From positions 21,039-85,038 of the forward strand of contig CAYUDC010000001.1 of assembly GCA_964443415.1 (NCBI GenBank): DNA of 64,000 nucleotides. The letters run 5' to 3'. Shown here piece by piece: positions 8,726 to 42,800 of this stretch (position 1 is its first letter; the number at the start of each line of letters is the position of its first letter). The notes below the pieces were generated by a model. That model was given only the letters and a program-made list of their open reading frames with translations. It did not search any database and was not told where the DNA came from. The stretch comes from an uncultured Chitinophaga sp. (GTDB lineage: Bacteria > Bacteroidota > Bacteroidia > UKL13-3). The position numbers and the translations under genes are program-made.

Positions 8726-9157
8726 ATGAACGTAAAAGTTATAAATTTATCTGATAATTCTTTGCCTGAGTACCAAACGCCCTCTGCTGCTGGCTTAGAT
8801 GTATGTGCCTTTTTAGCAGAGTCTGTTTTAATTAAACCAATGGAAAGGTTGCTTATTCCAACAGGTTTGTATTTAGAAATTCCAGATGGATATGAAGTTC
8901 AAATTAGGCCGCGTAGCGGATTAGCACTAAAACATGGAATTACTGTCTTAAACAGCCCTGGAACCATTGATGCTGATTATAGAGGCGAAGTGAAGGTATT
9001 GTTAATTAATTTAGGTTCTGAAACCTTTGAGATAAAGTCGGGGGAGCGGATAGCTCAAATGATTTTGGCTAAGCACGAGACACTTCAATGGCAGGCTGTT
9101 ACAGAACTAGCTAGCTCTAAAAGGGGTGCTGGAGGATATGGCAGTACGGGCAAATAA
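8726..9157 (+). CDS. dut: dUTP diphosphatase
   Basis: Trimeric dUTPase motifs: [35 protein letters not shown], and C-terminal GYGSTG. I chose the ATG at 8726 (MNVKV...) over the track start at 8678, which would overlap the flippase. Only 2 nt separate the flippase stop from this ATG. Confidence 0.92.
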
Positions 9158-9222
9158 TTAATCCCTATGAGGTTTTGAAATTTTAGTGCTTTATATTAGG
9201 TTGCGAAAAATCTAGATTTAAG

Positions 9223-10233: not shown

Positions 10234-10275
10234 TTTACCCAAGCTTATTGCGTTGTTACTGCATATCTAATAGCT

Positions 10276-16001: not shown

Positions 16002-16223
16002 ATGTATTGGACATTAGAATTAGCATCTTACCTAGATGATGCTCCATGGCCGGCAACAAAGGATGAGTTGATAGATTATGCCATTAGATCTGGTGCGCCT
16101 TTGGAGGTGATTGAAAACCTTCAAGAGTTGGAGGATGATGGCGAGCCTTTTGAAACCATCGAAGAAATTTGGCCTGATTATCCTACTAATGAGGACTATT
16201 TTTATAACGAAGATGAGCTATAA
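16002..16223 (+). CDS. DUF2795-like small acidic protein
   Basis: LASYLDDAPWPATKDELIDYAIRSGAPLEVIENLQEL matches the DUF2795 core, followed by an acidic tail. Confidence 0.55.
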   Translation: MYWTLELASYLDDAPWPATKDELIDYAIRSGAPLEVIENLQELEDDGEPFETIEEIWPDYPTNEDYFYNEDEL

Positions 16224-17390
16224 CTCTTCTTCTATTTGAGAAACGTCCGAATGTAAGGTCTTAATGAAATCCGCTTGGTACTTTTCCAATTGCGGATTTC
16301 TGTTTTCTTGGAGGTTGATACAATACCTCAAACCAGCACCAGCACCGATAGATTTTACCAGATTTAAATCCATGAGAAGCTGAAAGTCTCTTTGTATGGT
16401 TTTTCTATTGCAGTCGAATTCGTTTACAAGTTCTTTTGTTGAGATAAACCCTCTATGTTGTACAATATACATGATGAGTTTTTGTCTCTTATTTAAGATA
16501 GCATCGTCAATTTCCTTAAGCCTATAGCCGCGTTCAAAAACATAGTTCATGATGTTTTTTTGACGCGCATTCAGTTTGTCAAAATCCACTTGCTTTCTAA
16601 AGTAGGATTTAAACAAATCTTTAAGACGTTCTAATTGGCTTTGGTGTAATTGCAATCCAAACTCAATTTGTGCATTTAGGCTACCTTGGTTGCCCTCTTT
16701 CGATAAATGAATGATCTGTTCGTAATCTATTTTTTGAAGATATAACTCATGTTCTAAGCTTAGTAAACCAAATAAATCCATTTGATTTTTACTGAGCCAA
16801 AATTGTTGTAGCAAAGATGCTAGTTTGTTATTTCCTTCACTAAATATAGAAATGGTTCTTATTCTAAAATGTAGAATCCAACTCTGAACTATGGGGTGAA
16901 ACTCATTGTCGTCATTTAGAAATTCGAATAGGCTTTCGAGTTCCAATTCGCTTTCTATGCTTATTTTTTCAGCTTCTATATGGCTTGAATGTGAGAACAA
17001 ATCATTTTCTAAGGCAGCTTCTTTTTTCTTCCCACTTAATATCCTTTGCGTTTCGTATAGTAGTTCTAAGCTTAAAGGTTGATGAGTTTGCTGAGAAAGA
17101 AATAATTCTGCCTGACTGAAGTGTTCTATCGCTTGTTCGGAAAGACTAGAGGCCCTTAGATTTTTATTTAAGAGATACTTAACAGTTTTAATATCCACTA
17201 AATTATTGTCGAGCGCGTTGGCATAATAAGCGCGCAGGATAGCGCTATTTTGCTTTTCTATTTGTTGGATATTAAGAGGTAAATCTATAAAGTCGAATAT
17301 CTTGCAGAGTTCGCTATAAGCTCTTTCACATTGCTTGAAAGATTCTTCAATTGAAATGAGTGGCTCGTATTTGTTGATTAGAATCATCAC
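16218..17390 (-). CDS. Fic-like protein with degenerate active-site motif and C-terminal winged-HTH
   Basis: The central HFRIRTISIFSEGNNKLASLL aligns to the Fic HxFx(D/E)GNGRxxR motif, but the key residues are substituted. The C-terminal KLIMYIVQHRGFISTKELVNEFDCNRKTIQRDFQLLMDLNLVKSIGAGAG is a DeoR/wHTH-type DNA-binding domain. Confidence 0.5.
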   Translation of the reverse strand: MMILINKYEPLISIEESFKQCERAYSELCKIFDFIDLPLNIQQIEKQNSAILRAYYANALDNNLVDIKTVKYLLNKNLRASSLSEQAIEHFSQAELFLSQQTHQPLSLELLYETQRILSGKKKEAALENDLFSHSSHIEAEKISIESELELESLFEFLNDDNEFHPIVQSWILHFRIRTISIFSEGNNKLASLLQQFWLSKNQMDLFGLLSLEHELYLQKIDYEQIIHLSKEGNQGSLNAQIEFGLQLHQSQLERLKDLFKSYFRKQVDFDKLNARQKNIMNYVFERGYRLKEIDDAILNKRQKLIMYIVQHRGFISTKELVNEFDCNRKTIQRDFQLLMDLNLVKSIGAGAGLRYCINLQENRNPQLEKYQADFIKTLHSDVSQIEEEL

Positions 17391-17565: not shown

Positions 17566-20478
17566 TTAATTACCGCCCAAAGCCCTGTACCTTTTGATGC
17601 ACTCTTCAGCAGCTGAGTTGTTACCTTGCTTTTGAAATACTTGTGCTAATTCTGCCCACGCTTGTAGGAAATTAGGATTCATGCCCAACGCATATTGATA
17701 GTTTTCGGATGCTAGGTTTAAGTTATTTGTTGCAGCATAAGCTTTACCCAAGTAATAAAATACTTCTGGTATAGAGGTATTATGTTTCTTGGCCATTTCT
17801 AAGCATTTAATGCCATTGGTATAGTCATTTAAATTGAGGTAAGCTAAAGCAGCATAATACCAGCTTTCAACCACGTTTTCTTTTAGATCTGTACTTTTCT
17901 TAAAGGTTTCGGCAGCTTTTTGAAACTCCTTTCTGTTAAAATATACTAGTCCTAAATTACTGTAAGCGGTAAAGTTTTCAGGATAAATTTCGATGGCCTT
18001 CTTTAGGGTTAATTCGGCACTATCCATTTGTGCTGTATTAATTAAGGAGAAGCCTAACATACGCCATGCTTCTTCATCATATGGAGCATACTTTACAGCT
18101 TGGTTAAAATAGAAAATAGCTGAATCGAATTTAGAGTTGTCTAAGGCTTTATAGCCTAATGGCATGTGCCAGTTCTCTCTTTTGATAACTGCGGCTAAAG
18201 GTATGCCATCAGCCATTACCTGATAAACGGTTCCAGCAGGAGGGAATGATCCATTTAACAATTCGTTTTGAGAGAAGGTTCTAGTAGTTAAAATCAAATA
18301 ATCCCAACCAAGCTTTTGTTCTTCCATTTCTCGTGTCCAAACAAAGTTTAAGCGTGGATTTATCTGGTGTGCCCAATAGGCTGCTGTGGTAGTCTCATTA
18401 TTGATACCAATTACTAAGCTGTCTTTAGGATGTTGTTTGGCTATCCATTCTGCAGCTTCTCTGCATGAGTTAGAATAATAATCGGTTTCATAAGTACCAT
18501 ATGCGCCTCTTAAGCCACCCACCAACTCGTTAAAGTAAACATATTGATTAGGATGATTTTGTATGATCCAAACTGCTGGTTTAGCATATAAAACTAATAA
18601 CACCAAGGATGAAGTTAATGCAATGGCTTTCTTCTGACTTAATAAATAGTCCCAAAATATAGCGGCTAAACTGATGGCAAACGGTAATACAAAAAGGTAA
18701 TGTCTCCATCCATTGTAGTAGTTTAAGTTGCTATATTCTGCGTAAAGAATAGGGAAAAACAACATAAAAACTAACATTAGGATCGACCCTAAACCTATTT
18801 GTTTTTTAAGTGGGATAAACAATAGCAAACTGGCTACTACTCCAATAATTAAGTATAATGGATTACCCATACCTAAAAACTTAAATACATAGTACCATGG
18901 TGCACTGGTAATCATATACATCCTTTTGCCTTCAAAAAGCTCTACATTGTTGGTGTAAAATGCATTTTCTGAAGCCTTTTTAAAGGCCAACAATGGGTGT
19001 TCTAGTGGGTTATCTAAAGCATAAGGCCAAATCAAAATTCCTACTATATAACCAATCACACCCACTATAAAGAACATTTTAGCGTATGGGATTATGAACT
19101 TTAATGGATTGGTAACTTGTTTGTAAATAGAAAACCAATGTATGGCTAAGAACAAGCCAAAATAGGCCAAAAGCAATAGCGCACCCACCCTAGAGGCAAT
19201 GCCAATACCAATGCCTACAGCTAACCAAAGTAAATTTCTGTATAAAGGTTGAGGTAGACTTCTCATTACTTTAATCATAAAGTACCCAGCAAAAGCAAAA
19301 CCAGTGGCAAATGGTATGTCTGTTGGATTATTCATACTGTTTCCCATCCAACCAGGATTTAAGAACATAAACAACAAGGAAATCAAGGCTGCTCTCCAAC
19401 CTGCCAGTTCAAAGGCAATAAGCGAGGTAAATACCAGTCCAATTAATCCATAGATGCTATTAATTAAATGCCTTGTTTCGTAAACGCCTGTGCCAAATGT
19501 ATTGTAGGCAAAGGCCGCAACTGTATTTAATTGCTCTCCATAAAATCTATAAGCTTGCCTGATGTATTCACCACCATTAGCAGGCTCTGCTAGAGCTGCT
19601 GTATCTTCACCAAAAGTAGTCAGGTAGCGATAGGCTAGTTGAGAATAATCATTATGTGCCTTCTCGTCCCAGGTGCTGCCAAAATCTTGCGATAAATATG
19701 GCATGGCAAATGAAATGATTAAAAAGGCAATAAAGTATAAAAGGCGGTAAAGTGGATGGTTTCCGGAACTAAGTTGATGTTGCTTAGACTTTATCTGTAA
19801 AAGCGAATCGGTAATAAAATAATTCCATCTTAAAGAGAAAAAGCTAGGAACAAGGCCTAACCAATTGTTATTGCTTTTACCTTCAGAAGCGCCTAAAGAA
19901 AATTCTTGTGACTCAATTTTATAGGAGGCTGTTAAATTCAGAAGTTGGCTGTAATGATTAGCTGCCATTAAGGTTGTAGAAAGTTGCTGTTTGAGCCAAA
20001 GTGTATTGGCTGCAAAGACACCTGAACTTGCATCTGAACCTTTTATGGAGGTGAAAATCCTGGTTAGGCTTTGGTAAACCCTGTTTAAGATAGGTGTTTT
20101 TACCTTACTTCCTTTTGCCTGAATTTGGTTCGACCCTAATGATAGAACTTTTTGGTTAAGTAGTTTTTTATTGGTGGCAATCAACTGACTTAAGTTGCCT
20201 AAGGAGTGGGGCGCCTTCCATAAGCAAACACTTAATGTCCCCGTTGCATTCTCCAATGCATTCGCAAAATTTAATGCACTGGTTTTGGTTTGATCCCAAG
20301 GTAGCACGATTAATTTAGCATGGATAGATGTTCTCTCCTGATTGCTCAGGCATATAACTTCTATTTCTTGTTTGGTTTTAGAAATAAAACCTTCGAGCAT
20401 TTCCCACCAGCTGTTTTCTACAAATCTTGCGTCTACACAAATGGTGATTTTATTTTCGGAGAGTTGCTTGTTTTCCAT
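17566..20478 (-). CDS. GT-C family membrane glycosyltransferase (PMT/ArnT/TMTC-like) fused to C-terminal TPR repeats
   Basis: A cytoplasmic N-terminal domain of about 250 aa is followed by roughly 11-13 TM helices. The first periplasmic loop carries a DE motif (GSTWDEKAHNDY), as in GT-C enzymes. The last ~200 aa are TPR units (AWRMLGFSLI..., YSNLGLVYFNRKEFQKA...). Confidence 0.6.
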   Translation of the reverse strand: MENKQLSENKITICVDARFVENSWWEMLEGFISKTKQEIEVICLSNQERTSIHAKLIVLPWDQTKTSALNFANALENATGTLSVCLWKAPHSLGNLSQLIATNKKLLNQKVLSLGSNQIQAKGSKVKTPILNRVYQSLTRIFTSIKGSDASSGVFAANTLWLKQQLSTTLMAANHYSQLLNLTASYKIESQEFSLGASEGKSNNNWLGLVPSFFSLRWNYFITDSLLQIKSKQHQLSSGNHPLYRLLYFIAFLIISFAMPYLSQDFGSTWDEKAHNDYSQLAYRYLTTFGEDTAALAEPANGGEYIRQAYRFYGEQLNTVAAFAYNTFGTGVYETRHLINSIYGLIGLVFTSLIAFELAGWRAALISLLFMFLNPGWMGNSMNNPTDIPFATGFAFAGYFMIKVMRSLPQPLYRNLLWLAVGIGIGIASRVGALLLLAYFGLFLAIHWFSIYKQVTNPLKFIIPYAKMFFIVGVIGYIVGILIWPYALDNPLEHPLLAFKKASENAFYTNNVELFEGKRMYMITSAPWYYVFKFLGMGNPLYLIIGVVASLLLFIPLKKQIGLGSILMLVFMLFFPILYAEYSNLNYYNGWRHYLFVLPFAISLAAIFWDYLLSQKKAIALTSSLVLLVLYAKPAVWIIQNHPNQYVYFNELVGGLRGAYGTYETDYYSNSCREAAEWIAKQHPKDSLVIGINNETTTAAYWAHQINPRLNFVWTREMEEQKLGWDYLILTTRTFSQNELLNGSFPPAGTVYQVMADGIPLAAVIKRENWHMPLGYKALDNSKFDSAIFYFNQAVKYAPYDEEAWRMLGFSLINTAQMDSAELTLKKAIEIYPENFTAYSNLGLVYFNRKEFQKAAETFKKSTDLKENVVESWYYAALAYLNLNDYTNGIKCLEMAKKHNTSIPEVFYYLGKAYAATNNLNLASENYQYALGMNPNFLQAWAELAQVFQKQGNNSAAEECIKRYRALGGN

Positions 20479-20480
20479 GA

Positions 20481-21032
20481 TTAGCCAATTTTTTCGAATA
20501 CAAATAGGTTATTAAGACCCAATTGAAAATGGGATTGATGAATAAGTTTAAACCTAGGTTCACAAAATATCTGTGGGGTGTGTTTGGGTTCAAATCCGTA
20601 GTGCTCTTCTAAGCTCATACCGTCGATAAGCCTGAGTTTAGTAAGTATGCTTAAAATTAAATCAACCTGCGGAGAAGGCACTGTAATTATGAGACGTCCT
20701 TTTGGCTTTAAAAAGTCGTGGCAATTCTTAGCCAAATTTTCTTGTTCGGAGATAGGAATATGTTCTAAAACGGCAAGCAAGGTAATGGCATCAAAAGTTT
20801 CGCCCTTGGGGCAGGCTTCAGGAAAATAGCCAGGATAAAGGACGTAATTTTGTTTTATGATTTGCTCTGTGAGCGTTGGGTCAACCCCAATACCTTTGCT
20901 AATATAACCTTGCCAAGCTTCAAACATTACTCCGTCAACCGAGCCGATGTCTAGCACGGTGTCGTTCTTATTAACAAACTTTTTAGCCTTACTTATTCTT
21001 ACTTTTTGAAGATACCTATCTATTGCCTTCAT
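20481..21032 (-). CDS. Class I SAM-dependent methyltransferase
   Basis: Motif I VLDIGSVDG, followed by ...LKPKGRLIITVP. Its start codon overlaps the stop of the upstream GT2 gene at 21032. Confidence 0.75.
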   Translation of the reverse strand: MKAIDRYLQKVRISKAKKFVNKNDTVLDIGSVDGVMFEAWQGYISKGIGVDPTLTEQIIKQNYVLYPGYFPEACPKGETFDAITLLAVLEHIPISEQENLAKNCHDFLKPKGRLIITVPSPQVDLILSILTKLRLIDGMSLEEHYGFEPKHTPQIFCEPRFKLIHQSHFQLGLNNLFVFEKIG

Positions 21033-22201
21033 TACTTTTTATTCACGGTTAATACACCCAGAAAGAAACTCGAAAATACTGTTTGCAAGCCCACAATAAT
21101 GGCTACCACACTGGGGATAACAATACGCAGGATTTTGGAATATTCTAATTGGCCAAAATGTGATTCTTCCCAAATGTATAATGAAAAAAAAGTTCCAATT
21201 AAACCAACAAGGAAAATGATTAATCCAAGAATGAGGCCGCTTTCTAACGAAACCAGCTCAAAAGCCCTGGATAGCGAATCTTTTTTGGGTAAAAATCCAG
21301 ATTCTACTGCGTATGCCCTTGTGAAAATTCCAAAACTTAATGCCTGATATCCAACAATGATAAAAGCACCTGCATAAAGCAGGGTATTGGTGTCGAAGTA
21401 AATTTGTTTAAACAATCCCATAGGTCCTGGAATGATAAGCAACATTAGAATAAGCCCTAATAGCATCAAGGTTATACCTGGGTATAAAAACAGCCATCTT
21501 GGGCTGTAAATCAGTAAAAACCTTAAATGTCTCCATCCATCTCGCCATGTTCTAAGATGAGGTGGTCTGCTACGGCCATCTTTACTTAGAATGGTAGGAA
21601 CTTCTGTAATATTTAATTTATTTATAGTAGACTTTACAACCATTTCGGAGGCAAACTCCATCCCTGTGGTTTTTAAGTCTAATACACTAACGATATCTTG
21701 TCTAAATCCGCGTAGGCCGCAGTGAAAATCGTTCACAGGGCAGTTAAAAAATAATTTTCCAACAAATGACAAAACAGGATTTCCTAAATATCGATGTAGA
21801 AATGGCATGGCACCAGGCTTAATCCCGCCTTTAAAACGGTTGCCCATCACCAAATCATAACCATTTCTTAACTCATTGATAAAAAGATTCAGGTTCGAAA
21901 AATCATAGGAATCGTCGCTATCTCCCATGATTACATACTTGCCTTTTGCGGCTTCGATGGCACCCATTAAAGCTGCGCCATAGCCTTTACGAGGAACATT
22001 TATAACTCTTGCTCCTAAGCCAATAGCAATTTGCTGCGATCCATCGGTGCTGCCATTGTCGCCAATGACTACTTCACCAGCTACTTGGTTGGCTTTTAAC
22101 CATGCATTTGCTTTTTCTATGCAGGTTGCAAGGGTCTCTGCCTCGTTTAAACAAGGCATTACAATGCTTAACTCAATATTATTACTTGATTCGTAGTTCA
22201 T
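21032..22201 (-). CDS. GT2 polyprenyl-phosphate sugar transferase (Ppm1/ArnC/GtrB-like) with C-terminal TM anchor
   Basis: ELSIVMPCLNEAETL, IGDNGSTDGS and the DxD-region VIMGDSDDSYD are GT2 catalytic-domain signatures. Four predicted C-terminal TM helices follow, as in dolichyl/undecaprenyl-phosphate glycosyltransferases. Confidence 0.75.
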   Translation of the reverse strand: MNYESSNNIELSIVMPCLNEAETLATCIEKANAWLKANQVAGEVVIGDNGSTDGSQQIAIGLGARVINVPRKGYGAALMGAIEAAKGKYVIMGDSDDSYDFSNLNLFINELRNGYDLVMGNRFKGGIKPGAMPFLHRYLGNPVLSFVGKLFFNCPVNDFHCGLRGFRQDIVSVLDLKTTGMEFASEMVVKSTINKLNITEVPTILSKDGRSRPPHLRTWRDGWRHLRFLLIYSPRWLFLYPGITLMLLGLILMLLIIPGPMGLFKQIYFDTNTLLYAGAFIIVGYQALSFGIFTRAYAVESGFLPKKDSLSRAFELVSLESGLILGLIIFLVGLIGTFFSLYIWEESHFGQLEYSKILRIVIPSVVAIIVGLQTVFSSFFLGVLTVNKK

Positions 22202-23468: not shown

Positions 23469-24962
23469 ATGCTAAAACCATTTCAAATAAAATTGATAGG
23501 CACCTCAATGTGGGTTCTTTTAACAATTTTTGTAGGGCCAATGGCGGCTTTTGGGCAAACCATAGAATGGGGTAATCCCCAAAAAATTAAGACTAAAAAT
23601 CTTTTTACTCAAATTATTGGTGAAACACCAAATGGTTTATTTGCGTTACGCTGTAAAAACAGTGAGTTTAGTTCAGACCTCATCATAGAAAAGTATAAAG
23701 GTAATCTCAATCAAGAGCTTAGTTTATCATTGCCTCTTTCGGTGAATGGTTTGGTAGAGCGAGTGCTTTTAATAAACAATGAACTCTTTGTTTTTATGAG
23801 CGCCAAAAATATTTCTACCAACTCTATTGATATTTTGTCTCAGAAGCTAGATGATAATTTAAAACTGGTTGGTAATCCGGTTGTAATTTGTAGTTTTCCG
23901 GTAGCTGTTTATCTCGAGAAAAGGAAGATCCAAATTAAAACTAATGCTGCAAAAACAATGTTGGGCATTATGTTTTTGAGTAAATCCACCGATGGCAACG
24001 GATGTAAACTCAACGTATATGCCTACCAAGGTGCCTCACAACAGATTTTTGGCAGACAGTTTAATATTGAAAGTGCCCATAAAGATGTTTTTTTAACTGC
24101 TTTCGATTTAGATAATGAAGGTAACGCCTTTGTGCTGCTAGATTTTCCAAAGAAAACAGAAGGAGAAAGTATAGATACTCGAGCCTTTTATTTATATGCC
24201 TATTATCATGATCAAGATAAAATGTACGCGTATGATTTGGCTAGTAAAGATATGTTCATTGAAGAGCTAGGGATTACGGTTAATAATTTTAATAAGAGTA
24301 TTTCTGTTTTTGGCTTTTATTCCTCAGCAGAAGGCAAAGATGTAAATGGTTACTTTTACCAGAGGTATAGCACAATCTCTAAAGAAACAATAGTACGCTT
24401 TCAAACGTTGGTTCAACCCGAAATACTTGAAAAATTAATACCTGGGAAAGGAGAAAAGTTTGCGTTAGGATTAAATAATTTTTACATAAGAAAGCTCATT
24501 CCTCGTTCGGATGGTGGCATATTTATGGCAGCCGAAAAATATACCAGGGTAGAGCAACGATACAATTATTACCTTAACAACATGCCCATGGAAGGTGTAA
24601 GGGTTATTTATAATTATGATGATGTTGCCTTATGGTCTATTAATGCAGATGGAACCATTCATTTTACGGATGTAGTTCGTAAAAAGCAAAGTGCTGTAGG
24701 GGATATTGGTAATGCCGGAATTTGTATAGTGCCTACTCAAGACTTTATACATATCTTATACAATAGTGAATTGGATAAGGATGGTAATGTGATGTTACAT
24801 TCTGTTAATTATCAAGGAAGAGTAGAAGAGAAAATATTAATTAAAAATACCAACTTTAATATCTCTTTGGTGCCTTCCGAATTTAGGCAAGTTTCGGCAA
24901 GTAGTTTAGTAGCTGCAACTATCAAAGACAAATTATTTACATTGGTTAGAATAAAATTTTAA
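23469..24962 (+). CDS. Hypothetical secreted protein
   Basis: Signal peptide WVLLTIFVGPMAAFGQ. No recognisable motif. First gene of a tightly packed three-gene run with 1-nt gaps. Confidence 0.5.
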   Translation: MLKPFQIKLIGTSMWVLLTIFVGPMAAFGQTIEWGNPQKIKTKNLFTQIIGETPNGLFALRCKNSEFSSDLIIEKYKGNLNQELSLSLPLSVNGLVERVLLINNELFVFMSAKNISTNSIDILSQKLDDNLKLVGNPVVICSFPVAVYLEKRKIQIKTNAAKTMLGIMFLSKSTDGNGCKLNVYAYQGASQQIFGRQFNIESAHKDVFLTAFDLDNEGNAFVLLDFPKKTEGESIDTRAFYLYAYYHDQDKMYAYDLASKDMFIEELGITVNNFNKSISVFGFYSSAEGKDVNGYFYQRYSTISKETIVRFQTLVQPEILEKLIPGKGEKFALGLNNFYIRKLIPRSDGGIFMAAEKYTRVEQRYNYYLNNMPMEGVRVIYNYDDVALWSINADGTIHFTDVVRKKQSAVGDIGNAGICIVPTQDFIHILYNSELDKDGNVMLHSVNYQGRVEEKILIKNTNFNISLVPSEFRQVSASSLVAATIKDKLFTLVRIKF

Positions 24963-24963
24963 G

Positions 24964-25953
24964 GTGCTTAACATTTTTAGAAATAACGCTCTATCTGCCA
25001 TCATTGCTTTCTCTATCTTTTCAATTTTGTTAAGAGTAGGTGGTTTTGTAAACGATACACCACTTCATATGCAATCTCCTACCCCAGTGGCCCAATTTGT
25101 ATTAAATTGGATGCATCATTATGCACCATTGGCTTGGCAAAGCGCTCTATTAGCAACAGTTTTGGTGATTTTGCAAGCCTACTTTATAAACTTTATTTCT
25201 AACTCCCAACAAATAATCTTTAAAGACAGTGTTTTGCCTGGGCTATTCTTTGTTTTATTAAATAGCATTTATGCCCCACAGCAATTACTAACACCGCAAC
25301 TAATTGCCAATACTTTTTTAATCATTTTAGTTTACAGGCTTTGTTTTTTATATGAATCCTCAAACCCAATTTTTCCGGTATTGGATGCTGGTATGATGCT
25401 TGGCTTGGGAATTTTATTCGACCCTGACTTGATTTTATACTTGCCCTTTATTCTACTTAGTATCATTTATATGACTAAGTTTAATATTAGGTATCTATTG
25501 GTGGCACTTTTTGCTATTTGTATACCCATTTATTTGCTGGCAGCCATTTTATACTTAAATGATAACCATACCGATTTATTAGATACCTTATACTACACAA
25601 TCGATAAAACTTATTTTAAACCACTAGGAATTACATGGGAAAAAGGGATTATATGGATGATTATACTTCCTATACTGTTTTATTCTGCTATACTCTTTCA
25701 AACTAATTTTTTTAGAAATAAGGTAAAAACACGTCGATTGCAATTGATGATTTTTATTATGGTTCCTTTTGCACTTTTTTCTTTATTGGCGGGGGATTAC
25801 GGCTTCGAACTAGCTTTACCTTATTTATCTATTCCTTTTAGTTTTTTATTGGCTAATTATTTTGTTAGAACATCGTGGAAGTGGGTGAAAGAAATTGCTT
25901 TTCTGCTCATCTTATTAGCCGTTGTATATTATCAATATTTTGTAGTTTATTAA
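24964..25953 (+). CDS. Hypothetical polytopic inner-membrane protein
   Basis: About 9 hydrophobic helices over 329 aa. It starts 1 nt after the upstream stop. Confidence 0.5.
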   Translation: MLNIFRNNALSAIIAFSIFSILLRVGGFVNDTPLHMQSPTPVAQFVLNWMHHYAPLAWQSALLATVLVILQAYFINFISNSQQIIFKDSVLPGLFFVLLNSIYAPQQLLTPQLIANTFLIILVYRLCFLYESSNPIFPVLDAGMMLGLGILFDPDLILYLPFILLSIIYMTKFNIRYLLVALFAICIPIYLLAAILYLNDNHTDLLDTLYYTIDKTYFKPLGITWEKGIIWMIILPILFYSAILFQTNFFRNKVKTRRLQLMIFIMVPFALFSLLAGDYGFELALPYLSIPFSFLLANYFVRTSWKWVKEIAFLLILLAVVYYQYFVVY

Positions 25954-25954
25954 T

Positions 25955-26719
25955 ATGTTTTACTTTCTTTCAAAGGTTTTATACGCCCTCATTGCTCCCT
26001 TGTCTATTGTATTGATATTTTTTGCCTTGTTCTTAATTACCAAAGTAAAGAAGAACTTGTATATCGCATTGGCATTGTTGTTGTTTTTTACTAATCCTTG
26101 GTTGGCTCAAACCATCATAAAACTCTACGAAGTACCGCCGGTTAATTTAAAATCGGATGGAAAGTTTGAAGCTATCATTGTTCCCAGTGGCTTTGCTTCT
26201 AATTTTATCTTAGATGGCGTAGTTAGGGCCAATTTTAATGATGGAAATGATAGAATGCTTCAAGCCATTGATTTATTTCATCGAGGGGTTGCCAAGAAAA
26301 TTATATATACAGGTGGCGCCGATACGGTATTTGGTGGCTATATTCCCGAAGCTCAATTGGGCCGAGAATTTATGATGAAATGTGGCATTCCAGATTCCTG
26401 TATTATCATCGAAACATTTTCAATGAATACGCATCAAAATGCTGCTTACACAGCCAAAATTCTTGATACACTAGACGTAAATTGGAAGGAAAAACAATAT
26501 GTCTTAGTAACCGCAGGCTTTCACATGAGACGCGCACAAATGTGTTTTGAAAAGCAAGGTTTTAAAGTGGTTCCATATAGTGCAGATTTAAAAAGTTTAA
26601 GAAGTAGAAATACCATTCTAAATACCATTATTCCTAGCTATGGCGGGTTTCAACTATGGACCTATATGATAAAAGAGTGGATTGGTTTAGTAGTATATAA
26701 AGTAAAAGGTTATATTTAG
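25955..26719 (+). CDS. YdcF/ElyC/SanA (DUF218) family envelope protein
   Basis: N-terminal TM helix followed by the DUF218 core: AIIVPSG..., KIIYTGG, LVTAGFHMRRAQMCFEKQG. Confidence 0.7.
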   Translation: MFYFLSKVLYALIAPLSIVLIFFALFLITKVKKNLYIALALLLFFTNPWLAQTIIKLYEVPPVNLKSDGKFEAIIVPSGFASNFILDGVVRANFNDGNDRMLQAIDLFHRGVAKKIIYTGGADTVFGGYIPEAQLGREFMMKCGIPDSCIIIETFSMNTHQNAAYTAKILDTLDVNWKEKQYVLVTAGFHMRRAQMCFEKQGFKVVPYSADLKSLRSRNTILNTIIPSYGGFQLWTYMIKEWIGLVVYKVKGYI

Positions 26720-33967: not shown

Positions 33968-34014
33968 ATAACAAAAAATAAGTTATTTTGCAACCCCACT
34001 TAAATCCAGTTTAT

Positions 34015-36549
34015 ATGAAAAAATTTTTACTTGCTTTTGTTTCTTTTGTACTTTTAAGTTTAGCAAGCTTTGGCCAAGCGGTATTGCCTACGGTTTGGAA
34101 TTTTAGTTCACCTGGCATCAGCACACCACCTGCTGGATGGACACTGGGTTTAGGTACCAATGGTAACCTTACTTACGCCTTTGGAATAGGAGATGCCATC
34201 TCTGCTAGATTAGATGCCACAGGTGAATTTATAACCATTCAGATAGCAGATAAACCAGGTGAATTAAGTTATTGGCTAAGCCCTCAAAATGCTGGAAATG
34301 CATGGGGTGGTCAGTTTGATATTCAAGAAAGCCCTAATGGTACCACATGGTCTACCATTCGTTCTATTACTACAAAAGCAACAACCTCTACCAATTTTAC
34401 TGGTGGCAGATACCTAGAGAATTTACAAACTACTACTAGGTTTGTTAGGTTTTATTATACCACCAAACTTCCTGGAGGCTCTGCTGGAGGTGGGAACATG
34501 GCGGTAGATAGCGTAATGATTAAACCAGCCCCAGCGCCACCAACACCAGGTATACAATTAAAGTTGGGATCAAATGTTCTGGTGAATGGAAATACAGTGA
34601 TCATTGGTAACAATGCCAATACGCAATTTAATTTAACAAACACAGGAACTCAACAATCACTCATTATTGATAGCGCGTCTTTATCTGGACTGAATGCATC
34701 CGATTTTAGCCTTCAAAATTTACCAGATACCATTGTTGCAACAAGCAGTAAAAACTTCTTACTAAATTTTACTGCTGGCGCACCAGGTACTCGCAGAGCT
34801 ACATTAACCTTATTTTCTAACGATCCAGATAAACCAACATTTAGAATATCGCTTTATGCCATAGGCGGAAGTTTGGCCTCTGAGCCTACTGCCCAAGCCT
34901 CGGCAATTAACTTTACCTCCATTAAATCTTATGCATTTAATGTTCAACTAGATGCAACTAGCAAACCTGCTGAGAAGTTTTTGGTGCTCAAAAAGCTTGG
35001 GTCAGACATTACCGAAACTCCAGCAGATGGCATTACCTATACAAAAGGAGACTACATTGGCAGTGCTCAGGTTGAGTTTATTTTAGATTCAAGTTTTAAC
35101 TGGACACCTAATTATATCCATGCCCAGAAGAATTATCATTATGCAGTGTTTAGCTTTAATGGTCCTGCTGGATTTGAAAATTATCTTACTTCCAATCCAT
35201 TAAAAGGAAGCGTAACTACAAGTGGTAGAACACCCGGAAATTATTATGCTGGGATTAACCCAGCAGCTACAAGTTTTGTGAGTGATTTAAGTGCTAGGAT
35301 CAACCCTCATGATACAATTTTTTATAGTAACTACATCTCTAGATTAGTAAATCCATGGTTGGCTAGAGACACTAGCGGTGGCAAAAAGGTAGTTACCTGT
35401 GTTTATACTGGGCATCAGTTTGTGTATTCGGAGCCATTTTTATGGGCCAGTGGAAACAATGGTGCTGTGTTAACGCGTGAGCATACTTGGCCACAAAGTT
35501 GGATGCCAAGCAACCAGGGTAATCCCGATTGGCCAAATGCACCGGGCACCAATAGAGAGTTACCAGAATACAATGATTTACATAATTTGTTTCCGGCCCA
35601 TCAAATAAATGCCAATGCCAGACGCAGCAATAATCCATTTCATGAAGTAGTAACGCCTAGTTATACTTCTCCAACTGGTTTTGGCATGTTGGGTGTAGAT
35701 AGTTTTGGCATTACCTCTTATGAGCCAAGGCCAGAACAAAAAGGTGATGTAGCACGAGCCTTGTTTTACATGGCAGTGGCCTACAATGGGGTTGGGTCAA
35801 AATCATGGTCTATTCCAAATCAGCAATCTTTAAATTTATTAAAACAATGGCATCAAATGGATCCACCAGATGATTTTGAAATTGCCAGAAATGAATTTAT
35901 AGCCGTAACGCAAAAGAATCGTAATCCATTTGTTGATTTTCCAGAGTGGGTAGAAAGAATTAATTTCAGAACCATGGCATATGTGCCAGGGGATAGTATA
36001 CCACCTATACCAAAATCAATTAACATTACCTCTCCTAAGGCAACAGATACCTGGAGAAAAGGAATGGCAGCTAGCATATCTTATACCTTTCAGAACATCG
36101 ATTCGGTAAATATATTTTTTAGTTCAGATTCAATGAAAACATGGACCAATATTGCTGGCAATGGCATAGCCCTGTCTGTTGCAAATAATCCTTTTGTATT
36201 TACACCCCTTAGCTATTTTGACCATCCAACAGGCATTGTGATAGTGAAAGACAAGTCTAGTAATACGGCAGATACCTCAAGCTATTTCTTATTAGAAACA
36301 AGTAATGGATTATTAAATACTATTGGTTCGACCCAAATATTAGCTTATCCAAATCCTTTTGAAAGCCTATTGAATGTAAGGATTAATCAAGCCGGTTTAG
36401 TTAATATTTTCTTAATTGATTTACAAGGAAAAGTACTTGTTCAAACCCATGAGCCTAGAGTTGATACGAGAGAAATTCCAAATGGAGTTTACATCTTAAG
36501 GGTTGAAACTGCTCAAGGCCTTTATTTACAGAAAGTTGTAAAAAACTGA
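34015..36549 (+). CDS. Extracellular endonuclease I (EndA/NucM/Vvn family) domain protein with T9SS type-A C-terminal sorting domain
   Basis: Signal peptide MKKFLLAFVSFVLLSLASFGQA. Three Endonuclease-I motifs appear in the conserved order: REHTWPQSW (EndA EWEHVVPAWQ), DLHNLFPAHQINANARRSNNPF (EndA DMHNLQPSVGEVNGDRGNF), and KGDVARALFYMAVAYN (EndA RGAIARTYFYMRDQY). The C-terminal LAYPNPFESLLNVRIN...GVYILRVETAQGLYLQKVVKN is a T9SS CTD. Confidence 0.75.
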   Translation: MKKFLLAFVSFVLLSLASFGQAVLPTVWNFSSPGISTPPAGWTLGLGTNGNLTYAFGIGDAISARLDATGEFITIQIADKPGELSYWLSPQNAGNAWGGQFDIQESPNGTTWSTIRSITTKATTSTNFTGGRYLENLQTTTRFVRFYYTTKLPGGSAGGGNMAVDSVMIKPAPAPPTPGIQLKLGSNVLVNGNTVIIGNNANTQFNLTNTGTQQSLIIDSASLSGLNASDFSLQNLPDTIVATSSKNFLLNFTAGAPGTRRATLTLFSNDPDKPTFRISLYAIGGSLASEPTAQASAINFTSIKSYAFNVQLDATSKPAEKFLVLKKLGSDITETPADGITYTKGDYIGSAQVEFILDSSFNWTPNYIHAQKNYHYAVFSFNGPAGFENYLTSNPLKGSVTTSGRTPGNYYAGINPAATSFVSDLSARINPHDTIFYSNYISRLVNPWLARDTSGGKKVVTCVYTGHQFVYSEPFLWASGNNGAVLTREHTWPQSWMPSNQGNPDWPNAPGTNRELPEYNDLHNLFPAHQINANARRSNNPFHEVVTPSYTSPTGFGMLGVDSFGITSYEPRPEQKGDVARALFYMAVAYNGVGSKSWSIPNQQSLNLLKQWHQMDPPDDFEIARNEFIAVTQKNRNPFVDFPEWVERINFRTMAYVPGDSIPPIPKSINITSPKATDTWRKGMAASISYTFQNIDSVNIFFSSDSMKTWTNIAGNGIALSVANNPFVFTPLSYFDHPTGIVIVKDKSSNTADTSSYFLLETSNGLLNTIGSTQILAYPNPFESLLNVRINQAGLVNIFLIDLQGKVLVQTHEPRVDTREIPNGVYILRVETAQGLYLQKVVKN

Positions 36550-36801: not shown

Positions 36802-39800
36802 ATGAAAAAATATATACTTAATCTACGAAGCATGTTAGCTTTGGTCATTCTCCTAGTAGGTCTAGGTAATGACTTGCGCGCGCAGGTTTACCTGCTCGAA
36901 AATTTCGACAGCGCATTTGTGGGTACACCAGGAGCGCCTCCTGGATGGACTCAAACCCGTTTTGATTATTGGGGTGATGGCACTCCAACTGCAATTAATG
37001 TGGCTGGTCCAAAAGACTGGCAGAGAAACCGTTTAATTTCTTCTGGCTTTTGGTCTTCGCAGAGTTTTGGTACTATACCAAGCGCTGCTGTAACAGATTC
37101 AGGAGCTCTTTGGCTCGAAGATTACTATTTTGGAACACAAACCAATATGTTAAGCAGAAGGATTGAGTCGCCAGCTATTAATCTTTCAACAGCTACTTCG
37201 CCTTATTTGCGATTTAACATGTTTTTTGCTCAAACTGCCAATTACACGTATCCAATTATTGTAATGGCATCTAATGATAATGGTGCTACATGGAAATCTA
37301 TCATGCATGTTCAACCTAATGCAGATGTGGTTACTACTTCTACAACTGGCGCAGGTACAATGAATGCTGCTACACCTTGGCAAAAAATAACCATCCGTAT
37401 TCCGGATGCATATAAGGTACCTAATGCTAAGTTTGCCTTTTACAGAAACAATCCATATAGCTTTAACTCAAACCCTTTCATTGATAGTTTAACTATCGAA
37501 GAATTTACACCAACCACTATTACTTCTGCACAAAGTGGTAACTGGTCTGATCCATTAACTTGGGTTGGTGGAATTGTACCTAATGCTAATAATCACGTAG
37601 TAATTGATGCAAATCATACAGTTACTTCAAATGTGAATATTTCTCGTATGCAAAATTTAACCATCAGTGGTGGTGCATCGTTTTTATATTTTTCTTCTTC
37701 TTTAAATACAGTTTCTCAAATTTTTGGAAATTTAACCATCAACTCTACTGGAACATTTAGCCTTGGAACTACTGCTTCATCTACCATTAATAGATGGGTG
37801 TATATTGGTGGAAGTTTAACCAATAATGGCACCTTGAATACCGGTACTGGAACGGGAAGTGTTGTATACATGACAGGTGGGCAATTGAGCACCTTTACTA
37901 ATAATGGTACTATCTCAAACGGCTATATCTCTGGTATGTATTTTGCAAATTCAGGGGGTGTGGAGTTTAACGGTAGTATGACCAGTAACGTGGTAATTAG
38001 AAATTTAACTTTCCTTGTAGACGGTCCTGTAATTCCAAATGGTAAACTAACTTTAGGTATCACCGGAAACGTACATACAATTACACGCGGTAATAATACT
38101 GCGTTCTTTACCCAAAGACCTATTTATCCTCCTTTAGGTACCTCACTTCGTTCGGTAACTTATGGAGGTGGAACGAATGGTAACCCTACAATGGGTATTT
38201 TCTATAAGGACACTATTTTTACTGGATTTGAAACTGATACACTAGCTACTGGAGTTCAATTTATCAGAGGTACATTAACTGTTTTCACTCAGAATCATGT
38301 TAAATTAAGTGCTCCACTTCAAATTGGTGATACTGTTGGAAGAACAACGACACTTTCTGCTACCAATGCTGGTGGATTAACTACATTTAGTCGTGGTATC
38401 TTATTCACCGATGATGTAAATATCTTAACCGTTGGTCCAATTGGAAATGGTTCTTTAGGGGTTGACCCAAGTTTAAATAATTTAAATCCACCCACTACAC
38501 ACGGATCCTATATTGTTGGGCCAGTTAGATTTGTTAGACCATTATCAGGTACTTTAACCTCTACTTTAAGTGTTCCGTTAGGATACGGAAGTCAATACTT
38601 AGCGTTAAGTACACCAAATAATGCTAGACGTTATTTACAACTTACCGCAGGTGGAGGTTGGGCCGGACAGATTATCACTTTCCGCGCTCTAACAAACCCA
38701 TCTGGCGCGGTGAGTGCACCACAAACTTCTTTACTAACCAATCGTTTATACAGAATTGAGTTAGCGCCAGGTCAAAATTTGCCAGCAACCTCATTATTAA
38801 CCGCCATCACTAGAATAGAAGGTGGTAATAGCAATGCAGATGCTTTATTGGGAAACCAAGATCAATTATTCTTAATGCAAAGTACCAGTCCAACTGGACC
38901 TTGGGTGCCAAGAAATGTAGCGGCTGGTGCCGGTGCATTTGTTATTAATACATTATATACACGTCAAACAAGTGCATTATCACCTGGACCAATTAGTGGT
39001 AATGGTGAATATTTTGCATGGGCCTCTTCTGCACCATTAATGAACTTTCAGAATGGAGATGTAACCAGAGAGGTTGCCCCAGTTTCTATTGGTGCCCAAG
39101 ATATGCCAATGTTAAGAGTTAGGGTTAATGTTAACGGTACCATCCCAACTAGGGTAACTAACCTTGATTTTACGCCTGCTGGAACTTCTAACCTTGCAGC
39201 AATTTCATCAGCAAAGGTGTATTATACAGGTACCTCACCGGTATTCAATAATTCTACTCAGTTTGGCTCTACAGTTACCTCTGTAACTGGTGTTACTTCT
39301 GTTACAGGAAACCAAGTATTACAATCTGGCGATAACTATTTCTGGATTGCTTACAATGTTTCAGCTAGTGCAGTCTTGGGTGATAGTTTAAGTGCTAACC
39401 TAAACAGCATTACAGCAGTTGACACAGCAAGAACTTTAGTTACTACACCTGCTACAGGCTTTAGAATTGTAAGTGCTCCAATGACTTTTGTTTCTGCAAC
39501 AGCAGTTCAATTGAATGCAGCAAGAGTAGAGCGTGGCGAACAGGGAGCTGATATCATGCGCATTAATGTAAATATGTCGGCAACTGGTGCTCCGATTCCA
39601 TTGAATAGTTTGCGTTTAAACACCAATGGGTCAGGTGCCACTACCAACATCACACAAGCTCAAGTTTATTATACAGGTAACTCTACCACATTTAACAAAA
39701 ATCAATTAGTAGGAACATTTAATAGCCCAAGTGGAGCATTCATCATAAATGGAACCCAAAATCTATCTAATGGCGATAACTATTTTTGGGTAGCGTATTC

Positions 39801-42800
39801 TGTATCTGCTACAGCAATCTTAGATGATTCTGTTGATGTTGAGTGTGATTCGATTTCTATAAGTGGAGTAAACAGACCTGTAAGTCCAATAGCTCCAGCT
39901 GGAAATAGGCTCATCCGTGCGCCATATTGTAATAGCGCTGCAACTACTACTGGTGATGAGGAGATTTGGAATGTTACTTTTGGTTCAATTAACAATACCT
40001 CAAACTGTACAACCTTAGCCCCAGGGCCTGGTTCGGTGAATAGCATGTATTCAAATTATACCACTTCTATTGCACCTCCTAGTATTCCTGCTGGTTTGCC
40101 TATACCAATTAGTGTTAATGCTGCAAGTTGTGGTGGTAATTATCCTTCAACCTTAAGGGTATATATCGATTATAACCAAAACGGTGTTTTTGATTTACCT
40201 GGTGAATTAGCTTATTCTAATAATTCATTTACTTCTAGCACTGCAGGTACAACCATTTTAACAGGAAACATTACTGTTCCATGTAGTGCTTTACCTGGAA
40301 ACACAAGAATGAGGGTTGTATTAGATGAAACTTCTGGTGCTCCGGCTTGTGGTACTTATACTTGGGGAGAAACAGAAGATTACACCATTAATATTGTTGC
40401 AGGAGCTTCAACTTATACAGCTTCAAATGCTATTCAATTTACAGGTACAACTTCTGCCGGATCATCAGATGTTAGGGTATTGAGAGTGCCAATTAAGGTA
40501 TCTTCTTCACCTTGTAATCCTGGTGTTATCACACAATTAAGATTTAATACTGCTGGTTCTACCAGTGCTGCAGATATCGTTTCTGCTAAATTATATAAAA
40601 CTGGAAGCTCTAACATATTTAGTATTGCTAATCTAGTTGGTACTGTAGCCGCTCCAAGTGGTCAGTTTTCATTCACCGTAGCAGATACCGCTGTAAATGA
40701 TACCAACAATTATTGGTTAGCCTATGATGTAAGTGCTACTGCTACCGCATCAAATGTTTTAGATGCTAGATTTGATAGCGCCGAAGTATTTGGTGCTTGG
40801 TACACCCCAATTAATGGAAATCCTACAGGAAATTTAGTAATTACTGTTCCTATGGCTTATATAGGTTCAAGTGTTATTCATACAGACTTAGGAATGGTAG
40901 AAAGACCTTCTGTTAATAATAGAATGTTGCGTGCGATGGTAATCATGGGTTCTACTGGTGCACCAGTATCAGTTACTCAGTTTAGCTTAGATGCCAATGG
41001 CGGTGGTGATGACACCTCAAATATTGCTAACGTAAAAGTATTCTACACCGGAAGCAGCGCAAATTTTGCTTCAACCAACCAGTTTGGTTCAACTTTCGTT
41101 CAAACTACACCTACTGGTAATAAATATGGTGCCTTTAATATTAATGGTATCCTTAACCTGGCCAATGACACCAACTACTTCTGGGTAACTTATGATATTA
41201 AGTCTACCGCAATATTAGGTGACTCAGTTGACTTAGAAATGTCAGGCATTACCATTGCGGGTGTTAATAGAACTCCATCCACCACGGCTCCGGCGGGCAA
41301 TAGAAAAATTCGTGCTCAATATTGCGCCAGTGGTGCTACCTCAACTTTTGATGAGGAAATTTGGAATGTTACAGTTGGTTCGTTAAATAACACTTCTACT
41401 TGCGCTACCACAGCTCCAGGCCCTGGTTCTGTAAACAGCCAATACTCAAATTATTCTGGATTTGTTGCTGCTCCAAATTTGGCTGCAGGATTGCCAATTC
41501 CATTTAGCGTAAATGCAGCAAGTTGTAATGGTAATTACACTTCAATGTTGGGTATTTACATAGACTATAACCAAAATGGAATATTTGACTTGCCAGGTGA
41601 ACTTGCTTATGCTAGTGGTACATTTACCTCAAGTACAGCCGGAACACAAATAATTACTGGTAATATTACTGTACCATGTACTGCAATGCCTGGTATAACC
41701 AGAATGCGTGTGGTATTAAATGAAACTACCGGTGGTGTTGCACCATGTGGTACATTTGCTTGGGGTGAAACCGAAGATTATGATGTAAACATTGTATCTG
41801 GCGCTCCATCGTTCCGCAGTGTTAGTGTGAACCAAAATACAGGAACTACTGCTGCCTCAGCTACCGATGTTAGGATTTTAAGAATTCCTGTGGTTATGAC
41901 ATCATCGCCTTGTAACCCAGCTATTATAGATGGATTCTCTTTCAATACTGCTGGTTCTACTGCTGCTGCTGATATTGCAAATGCAAAATTATATGTAACA
42001 AGAAATTCTGGTGTATTTAACAATACCAACTTGCTTGGAACAGCAACTAGCCCTTCAGGCCAATTCACATTTACTGTGGCTGATACCTTAAATAATGATA
42101 CCAATTTCTATTGGTTAACCTATGACGTAAGTGCAACTGCTACCAATAGCAATGTGTTAGATGCTAGATTAGATAGTATCAACTTGTTAGGAAGCTGGCG
42201 TGTGCCTGCAAATGGAAACCCTGCTGGAAACGTAGTGATTGCCACTCCTATGACTTATTTAGGAAGTGCTGCTATACATCCAGAACAAGGTATCGTAGAA
42301 ACAGGAGCAGTTAATCAAAGAATGTTACGTGTAATGGTTAGAATGAGTTCTATTGGCGCTCCTGTTGCATTGACCCAATTTAACTTAAATGCAAATGGAG
42401 GTGGAGATGATACTTCAAACATTGCCAATGTAAAAGTATTTGCAACAGGCAATAGCCCAGTATTCTCAGCCGCTAACCAGTTTGGTACCACTTTCGTTCA
42501 AACTACACCTACCGGTAATAAGTGGGGTGCATTTAACATCAATGGTACCATTAACTTAAATAATGATACCAACTACTTCTGGGTAACTTATAATATTAAA
42601 TCTACTGCCATCATTGGCGACTCTGTAGATGCAGAAATTACAGGTTTAACCATTGCAGGTGTTTCTCAAACTCCTACCAATACTGCTCCAGCGGGCAGCA
42701 GAAGAATTAGAGGTCCTTATTGCGCTAGTGCCGCTCAGTTTGCTGGAGATGGAGAAATTTGGAATGTAACAGTTGGTTCGTTAAATAACACTTCTAACTG

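Follow-up and report, generated by a model that had tools for sequence, protein, structure and literature searches.

What does a bacterial operon do when the family databases see its largest protein as nothing but a row of tetratricopeptide repeats (TPRs)? The question is raised by three genes in a 64,000-nt stretch of an uncultured Chitinophaga genome (contig CAYUDC010000001.1, positions 21,039 to 85,038), the whole of which is called the window here. Where O-antigen, lipid A, teichoic acids, and the mycobacterial wall are concerned, glycosylation outside the cytoplasm with polyprenyl-phosphate sugars is a well-understood process. The answer proposed here, drawn from sequence comparisons and structural models, is that the three genes probably form a self-contained operon for extracytoplasmic glycosylation with a monosaccharide donor linked to a lipid phosphate. 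In the list of open reading frames (ORFs) they lie back to back on the minus strand, at the coordinates given in a preliminary description of the window. The first encodes a family 2 glycosyltransferase (GT2) of the polyprenyl-phosphate type, predicted to be a lipid-linked sugar donor synthase (21032..22201, 389 aa); the second encodes a small, soluble class-I S-adenosylmethionine (SAM) methyltransferase (20481..21032, 183 aa); and the third encodes a fusion of a GT-C glycosyltransferase with TPRs (17566..20478, 970 aa). The genes are spaced for coupled translation. At the first junction (TAATG), the last A of the GT2 stop codon TAA is the first A of the methyltransferase ATG at 21032, an overlap of 1 nt, while the second junction (TAA-tc-ATG) leaves a gap of 2 nt; both read exactly as had been claimed.

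The conservation of this arrangement was followed by scanning one genome per GTDB species (~185,000) with SMNNPTDIP, a motif of the 970-aa protein, as the pattern. A relative is encoded in 241 GTDB species genomes, and the best 80 of these 241 stretches represent 76 distinct loci, all from metagenome-assembled genomes (MAGs) and almost all with records titled Bacteroidota. Loci with at least 2.5 kb of upstream sequence, 63 in number, were taken as informative. Both the GT2 and the methyltransferase genes stand beside the GT-C gene in 54 of them (86%), and the methyltransferase gene is adjacent in 56, so that the co-location of orthologous genes, which the preliminary description had named as a check on its proposal, is borne out. 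Intergenic gaps range from -1 to 42 nt (32 loci). The methyltransferase is retained across three gene orders (GT2-MT-GTC, MT-GT2-GTC, and GT2-MT-FAD-GTC, where MT is the methyltransferase and FAD a flavin adenine dinucleotide oxidoreductase) and is adjacent in five of six very distant loci, in which the GT-C protein is only ~28-33% identical. In addition, a 106-kb ENA metagenome contig encodes an identical 970-aa protein with the same neighbors. The module is far beyond chance because of this identical protein, the relatives in 241 species genomes, and the co-location in 54 of 63 loci. Its surroundings differ by lineage and are of a housekeeping kind, including hflX, Fic/helix-turn-helix (HTH), HerA, RmlC, histidine kinase, and acetyl-CoA carboxylase genes, and no clue to the acceptor was found in the flanking genes of diverse loci.

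The protein at the center of the module carries little that Pfam or NCBIfam recognizes, matching only TPR models at residues ~770-965. Its homologues, of ~970-1000 aa, are more informative. Many have precomputed PMT_2 matches and some have GT2 matches, and when 28 relatives were scanned singly against Pfam, PF13231 (PMT_2) was found in 21 (best E 7.8e-10) and PF02366 (PMT) in five. A full-length AlphaFold2 (AF2) model built from 32 sequences reached a predicted local distance difference test score (pLDDT) of 86.7. In a Foldseek search with this model, TPR proteins dominated and ArnT appeared only at rank 31; residues 1-770 were modeled separately because the TPR proteins had swamped the full-length search (pLDDT 88.4, predicted template modeling score 0.89). 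With this shorter model, ArnT (5f15/5ezm) ranked first at E 1.7e-8 over ~605 aligned columns, followed by other GT-C enzymes, namely STT3/OST from yeast and human, AglB, Pmt4, AftA, and ALG9. The 970-aa protein thus has a GT-C fold, the point on which the preliminary description had staked its claim beforehand, although the assignment rests on predicted structure and on homologue matches because the window protein itself has no GT-C profile match. Of the families that were to be looked for, PF00535 and TPR are present in the window, and PF13231 and PF02366 in relatives; no GT-C family was matched by the window protein, and PF08409 (DUF1736) was found neither there at E<=10 nor in the 28 relatives at E<=0.01. 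MIR, PMT_4TMC, and DUF2723 were likewise absent from the Pfam matches of the window protein and the 28 relatives.

The model divides the protein into four domains. Residues 1-205 (19864..20478, minus strand, as for all features of this protein) form a GT-A domain whose Foldseek matches are DPMS (5mlz), GtrB, and ArnC, and an interface helix (residues ~209-231) follows. The GT-C core (residues 242-641; 18556..19755), assigned from Foldseek, the Pfam matches of homologues, and the modeled helices together with hydropathy, comprises 11 transmembrane (TM) helices in an N-in/C-out orientation. It is followed by an alpha/beta domain (residues 642-766; 18181..18555), delimited by the secondary structure of the model, with the motifs NHPNxYVYFNE, ETDYYSNSCR, and WDY. 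ArnT has a periplasmic C-terminal domain, and the alpha/beta domain falls inside the ~605-column ArnT alignment. Six TPRs (residues 767-970; 17569..18180) complete the protein, with matches to TPR_1, TPR_2, TPR_8, and others at E 1e-16 to 1e-21. In the full-length model this region consists of 12 helices (residues 771-966), and its fold matches are consensus TPR proteins, OGT, MamA, and subunits of APC/C. The cytoplasmic N-terminal domain and the loop charges, with KKQ at 553-562 and SQKK at 614-616 on the inner side, fit the N-in, C-out orientation, and the WDE and NNPTD (383-387) motifs, the alpha/beta domain, and the TPRs are therefore predicted to be periplasmic. Of the topology proposed in the preliminary description, the DE motif in the first periplasmic loop and the periplasmic TPRs hold as predictions, while its count of about 12 TM helices gives way to 11.

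The candidate active site lies at the outer face of this core. TM1 spans residues 242-265, and W270-D271-E272 come directly after it, where the first periplasmic loop begins (Asp271, 19666..19668, within the translation TWDEK at 19660..19674). Asp271 is invariant in four alignments that span 27-81% identity, and WDE as a whole is invariant or near-invariant; on this pattern, Asp271 is the predicted catalytic or metal-binding acid of the GT-C enzyme. The second element is the near-invariant SMNNPTDIP (residues 381-389; 19312..19338), read from the translation, whose Asp387 sits in a short periplasmic turn between TM3 and TM4. Together with YYNGWRHY and other loop motifs, it supplies invariant columns across relatives over the same range of identity. 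Mean identity differs strongly by domain; the N-terminal GT-A domain has 25%, the TM core 56%, the periplasmic alpha/beta domain 71%, and the TPR region 51%. The possibility that the 970-aa protein is not an enzyme at all but a TPR scaffold on a decayed GT-C membrane anchor is the weakest of the alternatives and is taken up last.

The N-terminal domain, the least conserved of the four, had been described simply as a cytoplasmic domain; the location stands, but its identity as a GT-A pseudo-GT2 with lost motifs had been missed. In three distant relatives (P0080, P0081, and P0286) the alignment shows textbook GT2 motifs in this domain (VPCYNE, VDDGSSDD, LDADM, and RDTQCGFK), while the window clade has TICVDAR, CLSNQER, CLWK-APH, and GSDASSGV at the same positions. 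The sole survivor of the canonical motifs in the window protein is D149, the Asp of DTQCGF. Judged from the model and the alignment, residues 1-205 are a GT-A fold of the DPMS/GtrB/ArnC type and a putatively catalytically dead copy of a donor synthase. Among the distant loci examined, five have a Pfam-recognizable fused GT2, and a separate adjacent GT2 gene was found in none of these. Identity between the stand-alone GT2 of the window and such a fused domain in its intact form is just 22%, which rules out that the former is a split-off copy of the latter; it was therefore recruited separately, and sequence comparison suggests that the recruited enzyme took over synthesis in the window's lineage. 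It can be speculated that the dead domain persists as a docking or hand-off module for the stand-alone GT2. As a separate observation, Bacteroidales bacterium AH-315-N07 carries two GT-C/TPR paralogues on one 7.9-kb contig (P0129 and P0147), one of 983 aa with an N-terminal GT2 domain and the other of 734 aa without it.

The stand-alone GT2 matches PF00535 at E 2e-25, and PF26629 (GT2_TM_C) is recorded for an identical protein. Its best PDB matches are Pyrococcus furiosus DPMS (5mlz, 1.8e-10), then ArnC and GtrB, and its best NCBIfam models are AglJ (4.9e-35), the haloarchaeal Dol-P-hexose transferase, and PpgS. It nevertheless falls below the curated cut-off of every named NCBIfam equivalog among these (AglJ, ArnC, PpgS, and the Dol-P-hexose transferase), with AglJ at 121 vs. 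325 bits. The GT2 motifs are intact (PCLNE, GDNGSTDGS, GDSDD, and NDFHCG), with DSDD (D94-D97; 21911..21922, minus strand) at the DxD position; read from the translation, this metal- and nucleotide-sugar-binding motif aligns with LDADM of the canonical relatives. Hydropathy places four hydrophobic helices at residues 234-387, a C-terminal membrane anchor. Across loci, the identity of the GT2 is 66-90% where that of the GT-C protein is just 39-81%. On sequence, the 389-aa protein is of the polyprenyl-phosphate sugar synthase type with an intact catalytic domain, which agrees with the earlier call of a GT2 with DxD and a C-terminal TM anchor. A variation on this slot is seen at L035 (4723-5972) and, at the same positions, L038, where a short 225-aa GT2 that lacks the C-terminal TM region replaces the 389-aa enzyme. 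The methyltransferase in these two loci is just ~34% identical to that of the window; the slot is kept while its occupants change.

The middle gene had also been called correctly as a methyltransferase, and the partnership is kept in relatives of ~28-33% identity. The 183-aa protein matches Methyltransf_23 (PF13489) at E 1e-11, with 45 bits against a cut-off of 27, and Methyltransf_11 (PF08241) with 27.8 against 21.2, and it shows weak similarities to UbiG, MetW, and DVU_1556. It has no hydrophobic stretch in the hydropathy profile, and it is therefore cytoplasmic. In nine of the 63 informative loci (L056, L062, L066, L067, and L070-L074), a PRK07208-type FAD oxidoreductase gene also lies beside the GT-C gene, as at L067:3893-5323 and L056:4209-5666, with NF005548 above its cut-off and a weak similarity to UDP-galactopyranose mutase. 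It stands between the methyltransferase and GT-C genes in two loci and is absent from the window module; it may be a second accessory enzyme that modifies the donor.

What these analyses show is how the genes are ordered and coupled, which folds and conserved residues their products have, what topology is predicted, and that the operon is conserved. From this we infer each chemical step of the following route, as well as the methylation of the donor and the kind of acceptor. DPMS, GtrB, and ArnC transfer a sugar from a nucleotide sugar to polyprenyl phosphate, and by homology the stand-alone GT2 would do the same at the cytoplasmic face, with a sugar that is probably a hexose and with polyprenyl (undecaprenyl) phosphate as the carrier. 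The methyltransferase would then methylate the sugar, most simply on the lipid-linked intermediate, as gene linkage suggests; a soluble enzyme of this kind can act in the cytoplasm only, so methylation would precede export. By analogy with the epimerases of the pentofuranose three-component systems, it would serve as an accessory that modifies the donor; those systems provide a precedent for auxiliary enzymes that act on lipid-linked donors (PMC11127046). Once the donor is flipped across the membrane, the GT-C core, with its modeled fold and invariant residues, would move the sugar to the acceptor by means of Asp271 of WDE and the NNPTD turn, while the highly conserved periplasmic alpha/beta domain and the six TPRs would hold that acceptor. 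A protein, as the acceptor or as a partner, is favored by the TPRs. The periplasmic modification system of the preliminary description therefore stands as the core of the present reading, while the methylated sugar that it included goes beyond the evidence, which is gene linkage alone.

This scheme has several precedents. The three-component systems (GtrA/GtrB/Gtr*, ArnC/ArnEF/ArnT, CsbB/GtcA/YfhO, and the pentofuranose systems) share its logic of a cytoplasmic GT2 that makes the donor and a GT-C enzyme that acts outside, and there, as here, the genes are clustered and auxiliary donor-modifying enzymes may be present (PMC11127046). In contrast to them, the present operon has no flippase gene, its auxiliary enzyme is a SAM methyltransferase, its GT-C protein bears an N-terminal dead donor synthase and C-terminal TPRs, and the module lies outside glycan biosynthesis loci. 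ArnT (GT83), which transfers 4-amino-arabinose to lipid A, is the top structural match including its periplasmic C-terminal domain; the homologues of the 970-aa protein match PF13231, and both proteins have an acidic residue where the first periplasmic loop begins. However, identity to ArnT is only ~14%, there are 11 TM helices as opposed to 13 (PMC7801869), the GT-A domain and the TPRs are additional, and the paired GT2 is nearer to DPMS and AglJ than to ArnC. The pairing of synthase and transferase known from ArnC/ArnT and Ppm1/Pmt, to which the locus had been likened at the outset, is supported by the conserved operon and the matching folds. Ppm1/Pmt of actinobacteria and Dpm1/PMT (GT39) follow the same logic, with a DE-type motif in loop 1; the PF02366 matches in five of 28 relatives and Pmt4 among the fold matches extend the likeness to PMT, although MIR and PMT_4TMC are lacking here and TPRs take the place of MIR. 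The stand-alone GT2 shares its layout of a catalytic domain followed by four C-terminal TM helices with P. furiosus DPMS and with Haloferax AglJ/AglD, while remaining far below the AglJ equivalog cut-off.

The closest parallel in architecture is found in eukaryotes. TMTC1-4 and TMEM260 are GT-C enzymes with 11 TM helices, a cytoplasmic N-terminus, extracytoplasmic TPRs, and a lipid-phosphate monosaccharide donor (PMC7801869, PMC10214176), and the 970-aa protein is alike in these respects. It differs in lacking a DUF2723 signature and the DUF1736 loop that TMTC proteins carry between TM7 and TM8, in having an alpha/beta domain between the TM core and the TPRs as well as an N-terminal GT-A domain, and in being encoded alongside a donor synthase and a methyltransferase. 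The earlier label of TMTC/PMT-like is therefore apt for architecture and fold but not for family membership, as DUF1736 and MIR are both missing. From these sequence comparisons, the system appears to work like ArnC/ArnT, Ppm1/Pmt, and TMTC without being a member of the TMTC, PMT, or TMEM260 families. A characterized bacterial GT-C/TPR enzyme was not found in literature searches.

A number of findings weigh against a self-contained glycosylation operon of this kind. In seven of the 63 informative loci, neither the GT2 nor the methyltransferase gene lies within 6 kb of the GT-C gene, and the distant locus P0327 has no adjacent methyltransferase. No flippase gene of the GtrA/GtcA, SMR, or MATE type was found in the operon, within 10 kb on the source contig, or in the flanks of related loci. 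Pfam at E<=10 gave nothing useful and no GT-C family for the first 770 residues of the 970-aa protein, and a family profile searched against PDB sequences gave weak SpsA and GtrB matches to the N-terminal domain and no GT-C. The names of family members in source databases are limited to 'tetratricopeptide repeat protein', 'glycosyltransferase', 'phospholipid carrier-dependent glycosyltransferase', 'YfhO family protein', and 'hypothetical protein'. The sequence specifies neither the sugar used by the GT2 nor the acceptor of the system. As for the methyltransferase, no specific family match was found in Pfam or NCBIfam, and its substrate is not indicated; moreover, SAM-binding motif I (residues 28-34) reads D-I-G-S-V-D-G in the window clade, with the middle glycine replaced, while other sub-lineages have GCGDG or GSGSG. 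Despite this atypical motif, the window methyltransferase is 57-86% conserved among its orthologues.

The strongest alternative concerns the acceptor. It is possible, without being probable, that the sugar is transferred not to protein but to lipid A or the lipopolysaccharide (LPS) core, to another glycolipid, or to a periplasmic polysaccharide, in the manner of ArnT, Gtr, or Emb, with the TPRs docking envelope-biogenesis proteins or guiding the glycan. Polysaccharide export proteins, too, contain TPR domains in the periplasm, and the TPR region shows weak matches to the BcsC and PgaA models. The best structural match over the TM core and periplasmic domain is ArnT, a modifier of lipid A; the GT2 relatives ArnC and PpgS serve lipid or glycan acceptors; and the characterized bacterial three-component systems act on glycans (PMC11127046). 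On the other hand, the known GT-C enzymes with C-terminal TPRs (TMTC1-4 and TMEM260) are protein O-mannosyltransferases (PMC7801869, PMC10214176), and among the loci examined the module lies in no LPS or polysaccharide cluster, its flanks being unrelated, lineage-specific, and of the housekeeping type. In one sub-lineage (L043:8952-10910 and L048, ~9010-10965), a 652-aa GT2 of the processive-synthase type (Glyco_tranf_2_3) is encoded directly downstream of the GT-C gene, a possible hint that the acceptor there is a polysaccharide.

A second alternative leaves the glycosylation route in place but removes the methyltransferase from it. The enzyme might methylate another target, whether lipid, small molecule, or protein; alternatively, it might regulate or stabilize the complex. 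In either case the linkage would reflect co-expression. This appears somewhat unlikely. The family matches are generic (Methyltransf_23/11, with UbiG, MetW, and DVU_1556 only weakly similar), motif I is atypical in the window clade, and the methyltransferases of different sub-lineages are just 25-27% identical, with pairwise E values of 0.05 to 1e-5 that make orthology uncertain. Still, 56 of the 63 closer loci and five of the six distant ones have an adjacent gene of this Pfam type despite changed order and flanks, at a spacing typical of translational coupling, a persistence that would be difficult to account for if no pathway were shared.

More specific versions of the protein-acceptor idea are harder to sustain. 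We consider it unlikely, though worth stating, that the module is a bacterial counterpart of TMTC/TMEM260 that places a single O-methylated hexose on periplasmic or surface proteins, with the synthase, the dead domain, and the transferase forming one complex that needs no dedicated flippase; in a related form of this proposal, the family would provide, in these lineages, the linkage to protein that is still missing from Bacteroidota O-glycosylation. Very unlikely is the broader claim that the GT-C/TPR protein is the transferase that starts phylum-wide Bacteroidota O-glycosylation at D-(S/T)-(A/I/L/V/M/T), adding the first hexose from a lipid-phosphate donor. The transferase, core flippase, and ligase of that system are still undiscovered (2025 review, PMC12871550), the architecture suits a protein O-glycosyltransferase, and giant secreted proteins of the window are ~2-fold enriched in the motif, although such enrichment would be expected from a general system whatever the operon does. 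An enzyme of the whole phylum would not be expected to have the distribution seen here: no model species whose O-glycoproteome is proven is among the matches listed (those genomes were not searched directly). The named matches listed all come from uncultured or poorly characterized Bacteroidia, Cytophagales, Chitinophagales, and Saprospiraceae, and the family motifs occur in just 241 of ~185,000 GTDB species genomes. The presence of a dedicated donor synthase and methyltransferase also suits a decoration that is added on more than it suits a core step common to all. The candidate is thus set aside as unlikely on distribution, without a direct comparison with the model genomes. Least probable of all is the non-catalytic scaffold, since its supports (the missing Pfam GT-C match and a demonstrably degenerate N-terminal domain) are outweighed by a TM core at 56% and a periplasmic domain at 71% identity, against 25% for the dead domain, and by Asp271, SMNNPTDIP, and YYNGWRHY, invariant across 27-81% identity; a conserved core with invariant loop motifs is characteristic of an active site maintained by selection.

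The preliminary description had further suggested that giant type IX secretion system (T9SS) cargo proteins encoded nearby may be the substrates, and this is not upheld. In the proteins encoded at 36802..45969 and 46167..54476, D[ST][AILVMT] occurs at ~2 times the shuffled expectation (z 2.7 and 3.5, respectively), an enrichment that is modest and concerns the generic motif of phylum-wide O-glycosylation. The genes lie 15 kb away and outside the conserved module; support for them as substrates is lacking because the enrichment is generic and there is no synteny with the module. Three large proteins in this part of the window, all on the plus strand (33988..36549, 853 aa; 36802..45969, 3055 aa; and 46167..54476, 2769 aa), have similar C-terminal endings, and all three show a ~2- to 3-fold enrichment of the O-glycosylation motif (z 2.7-3.5). 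The 970-aa protein itself contains five D-(S/T)-(A/I/L/V/M/T) sites, at residues 224, 292, 686, 785, and 819 (z 4.0 vs. shuffles). Four of the five are in predicted periplasmic parts, and the Asp of D292-T-A, within the first periplasmic loop, is invariant. The protein may itself be a substrate of general Bacteroidota O-glycosylation; in Prevotella, TPR proteins are often O-glycoproteins (PMC10897501).

The immediate neighbors of the module in the window are an hflX-type GTPase gene, whose end lies 35 nt upstream, and a Fic/DeoR-HTH gene downstream. The latter (16218..17390, minus strand), directly downstream of the module, encodes a 390-aa protein with a sub-threshold, weak Fic match and a DeoR-type HTH. 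Its position is kept in relatives down to ~52% GT-C identity, which probably reflects synteny rather than function. A scan for promoter and terminator consensus sequences gave counts no higher than chance. Divergent from hflX, three closely packed genes occupy 23469..26719 on the plus strand. The first, an ORF of 497 aa, matches nothing in Pfam or NCBIfam, the second encodes a 329-aa multi-TM DUF6427 protein and starts immediately after the stop of the first, and the third encodes a DUF218 protein and starts 2 nt past the second.

The family to which the 970-aa protein belongs is large. When its 536-aa core was compared by phmmer with 1.84 billion representatives, there were 5015 matches at E<=1e-3 and 967 at E<=1e-30, and the named matches listed are from Bacteroidia, Cytophagales, Chitinophagales, and Saprospiraceae, mostly MAGs. 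Some 1000 protein clusters could therefore be re-annotated from one defined three-gene unit. Here is an operon kept across hundreds of uncultured Bacteroidota species whose key enzyme is annotated just as a TPR protein. It also presents a case in which a fused synthase domain appears to have decayed to a pseudo-enzyme after a separate gene took over its role. The module bears, if weakly, on the identity of the glycan-to-protein linking enzymes of Bacteroidota, and it offers a way to test for TMTC-like, protein-specific O-glycosylation in bacteria.

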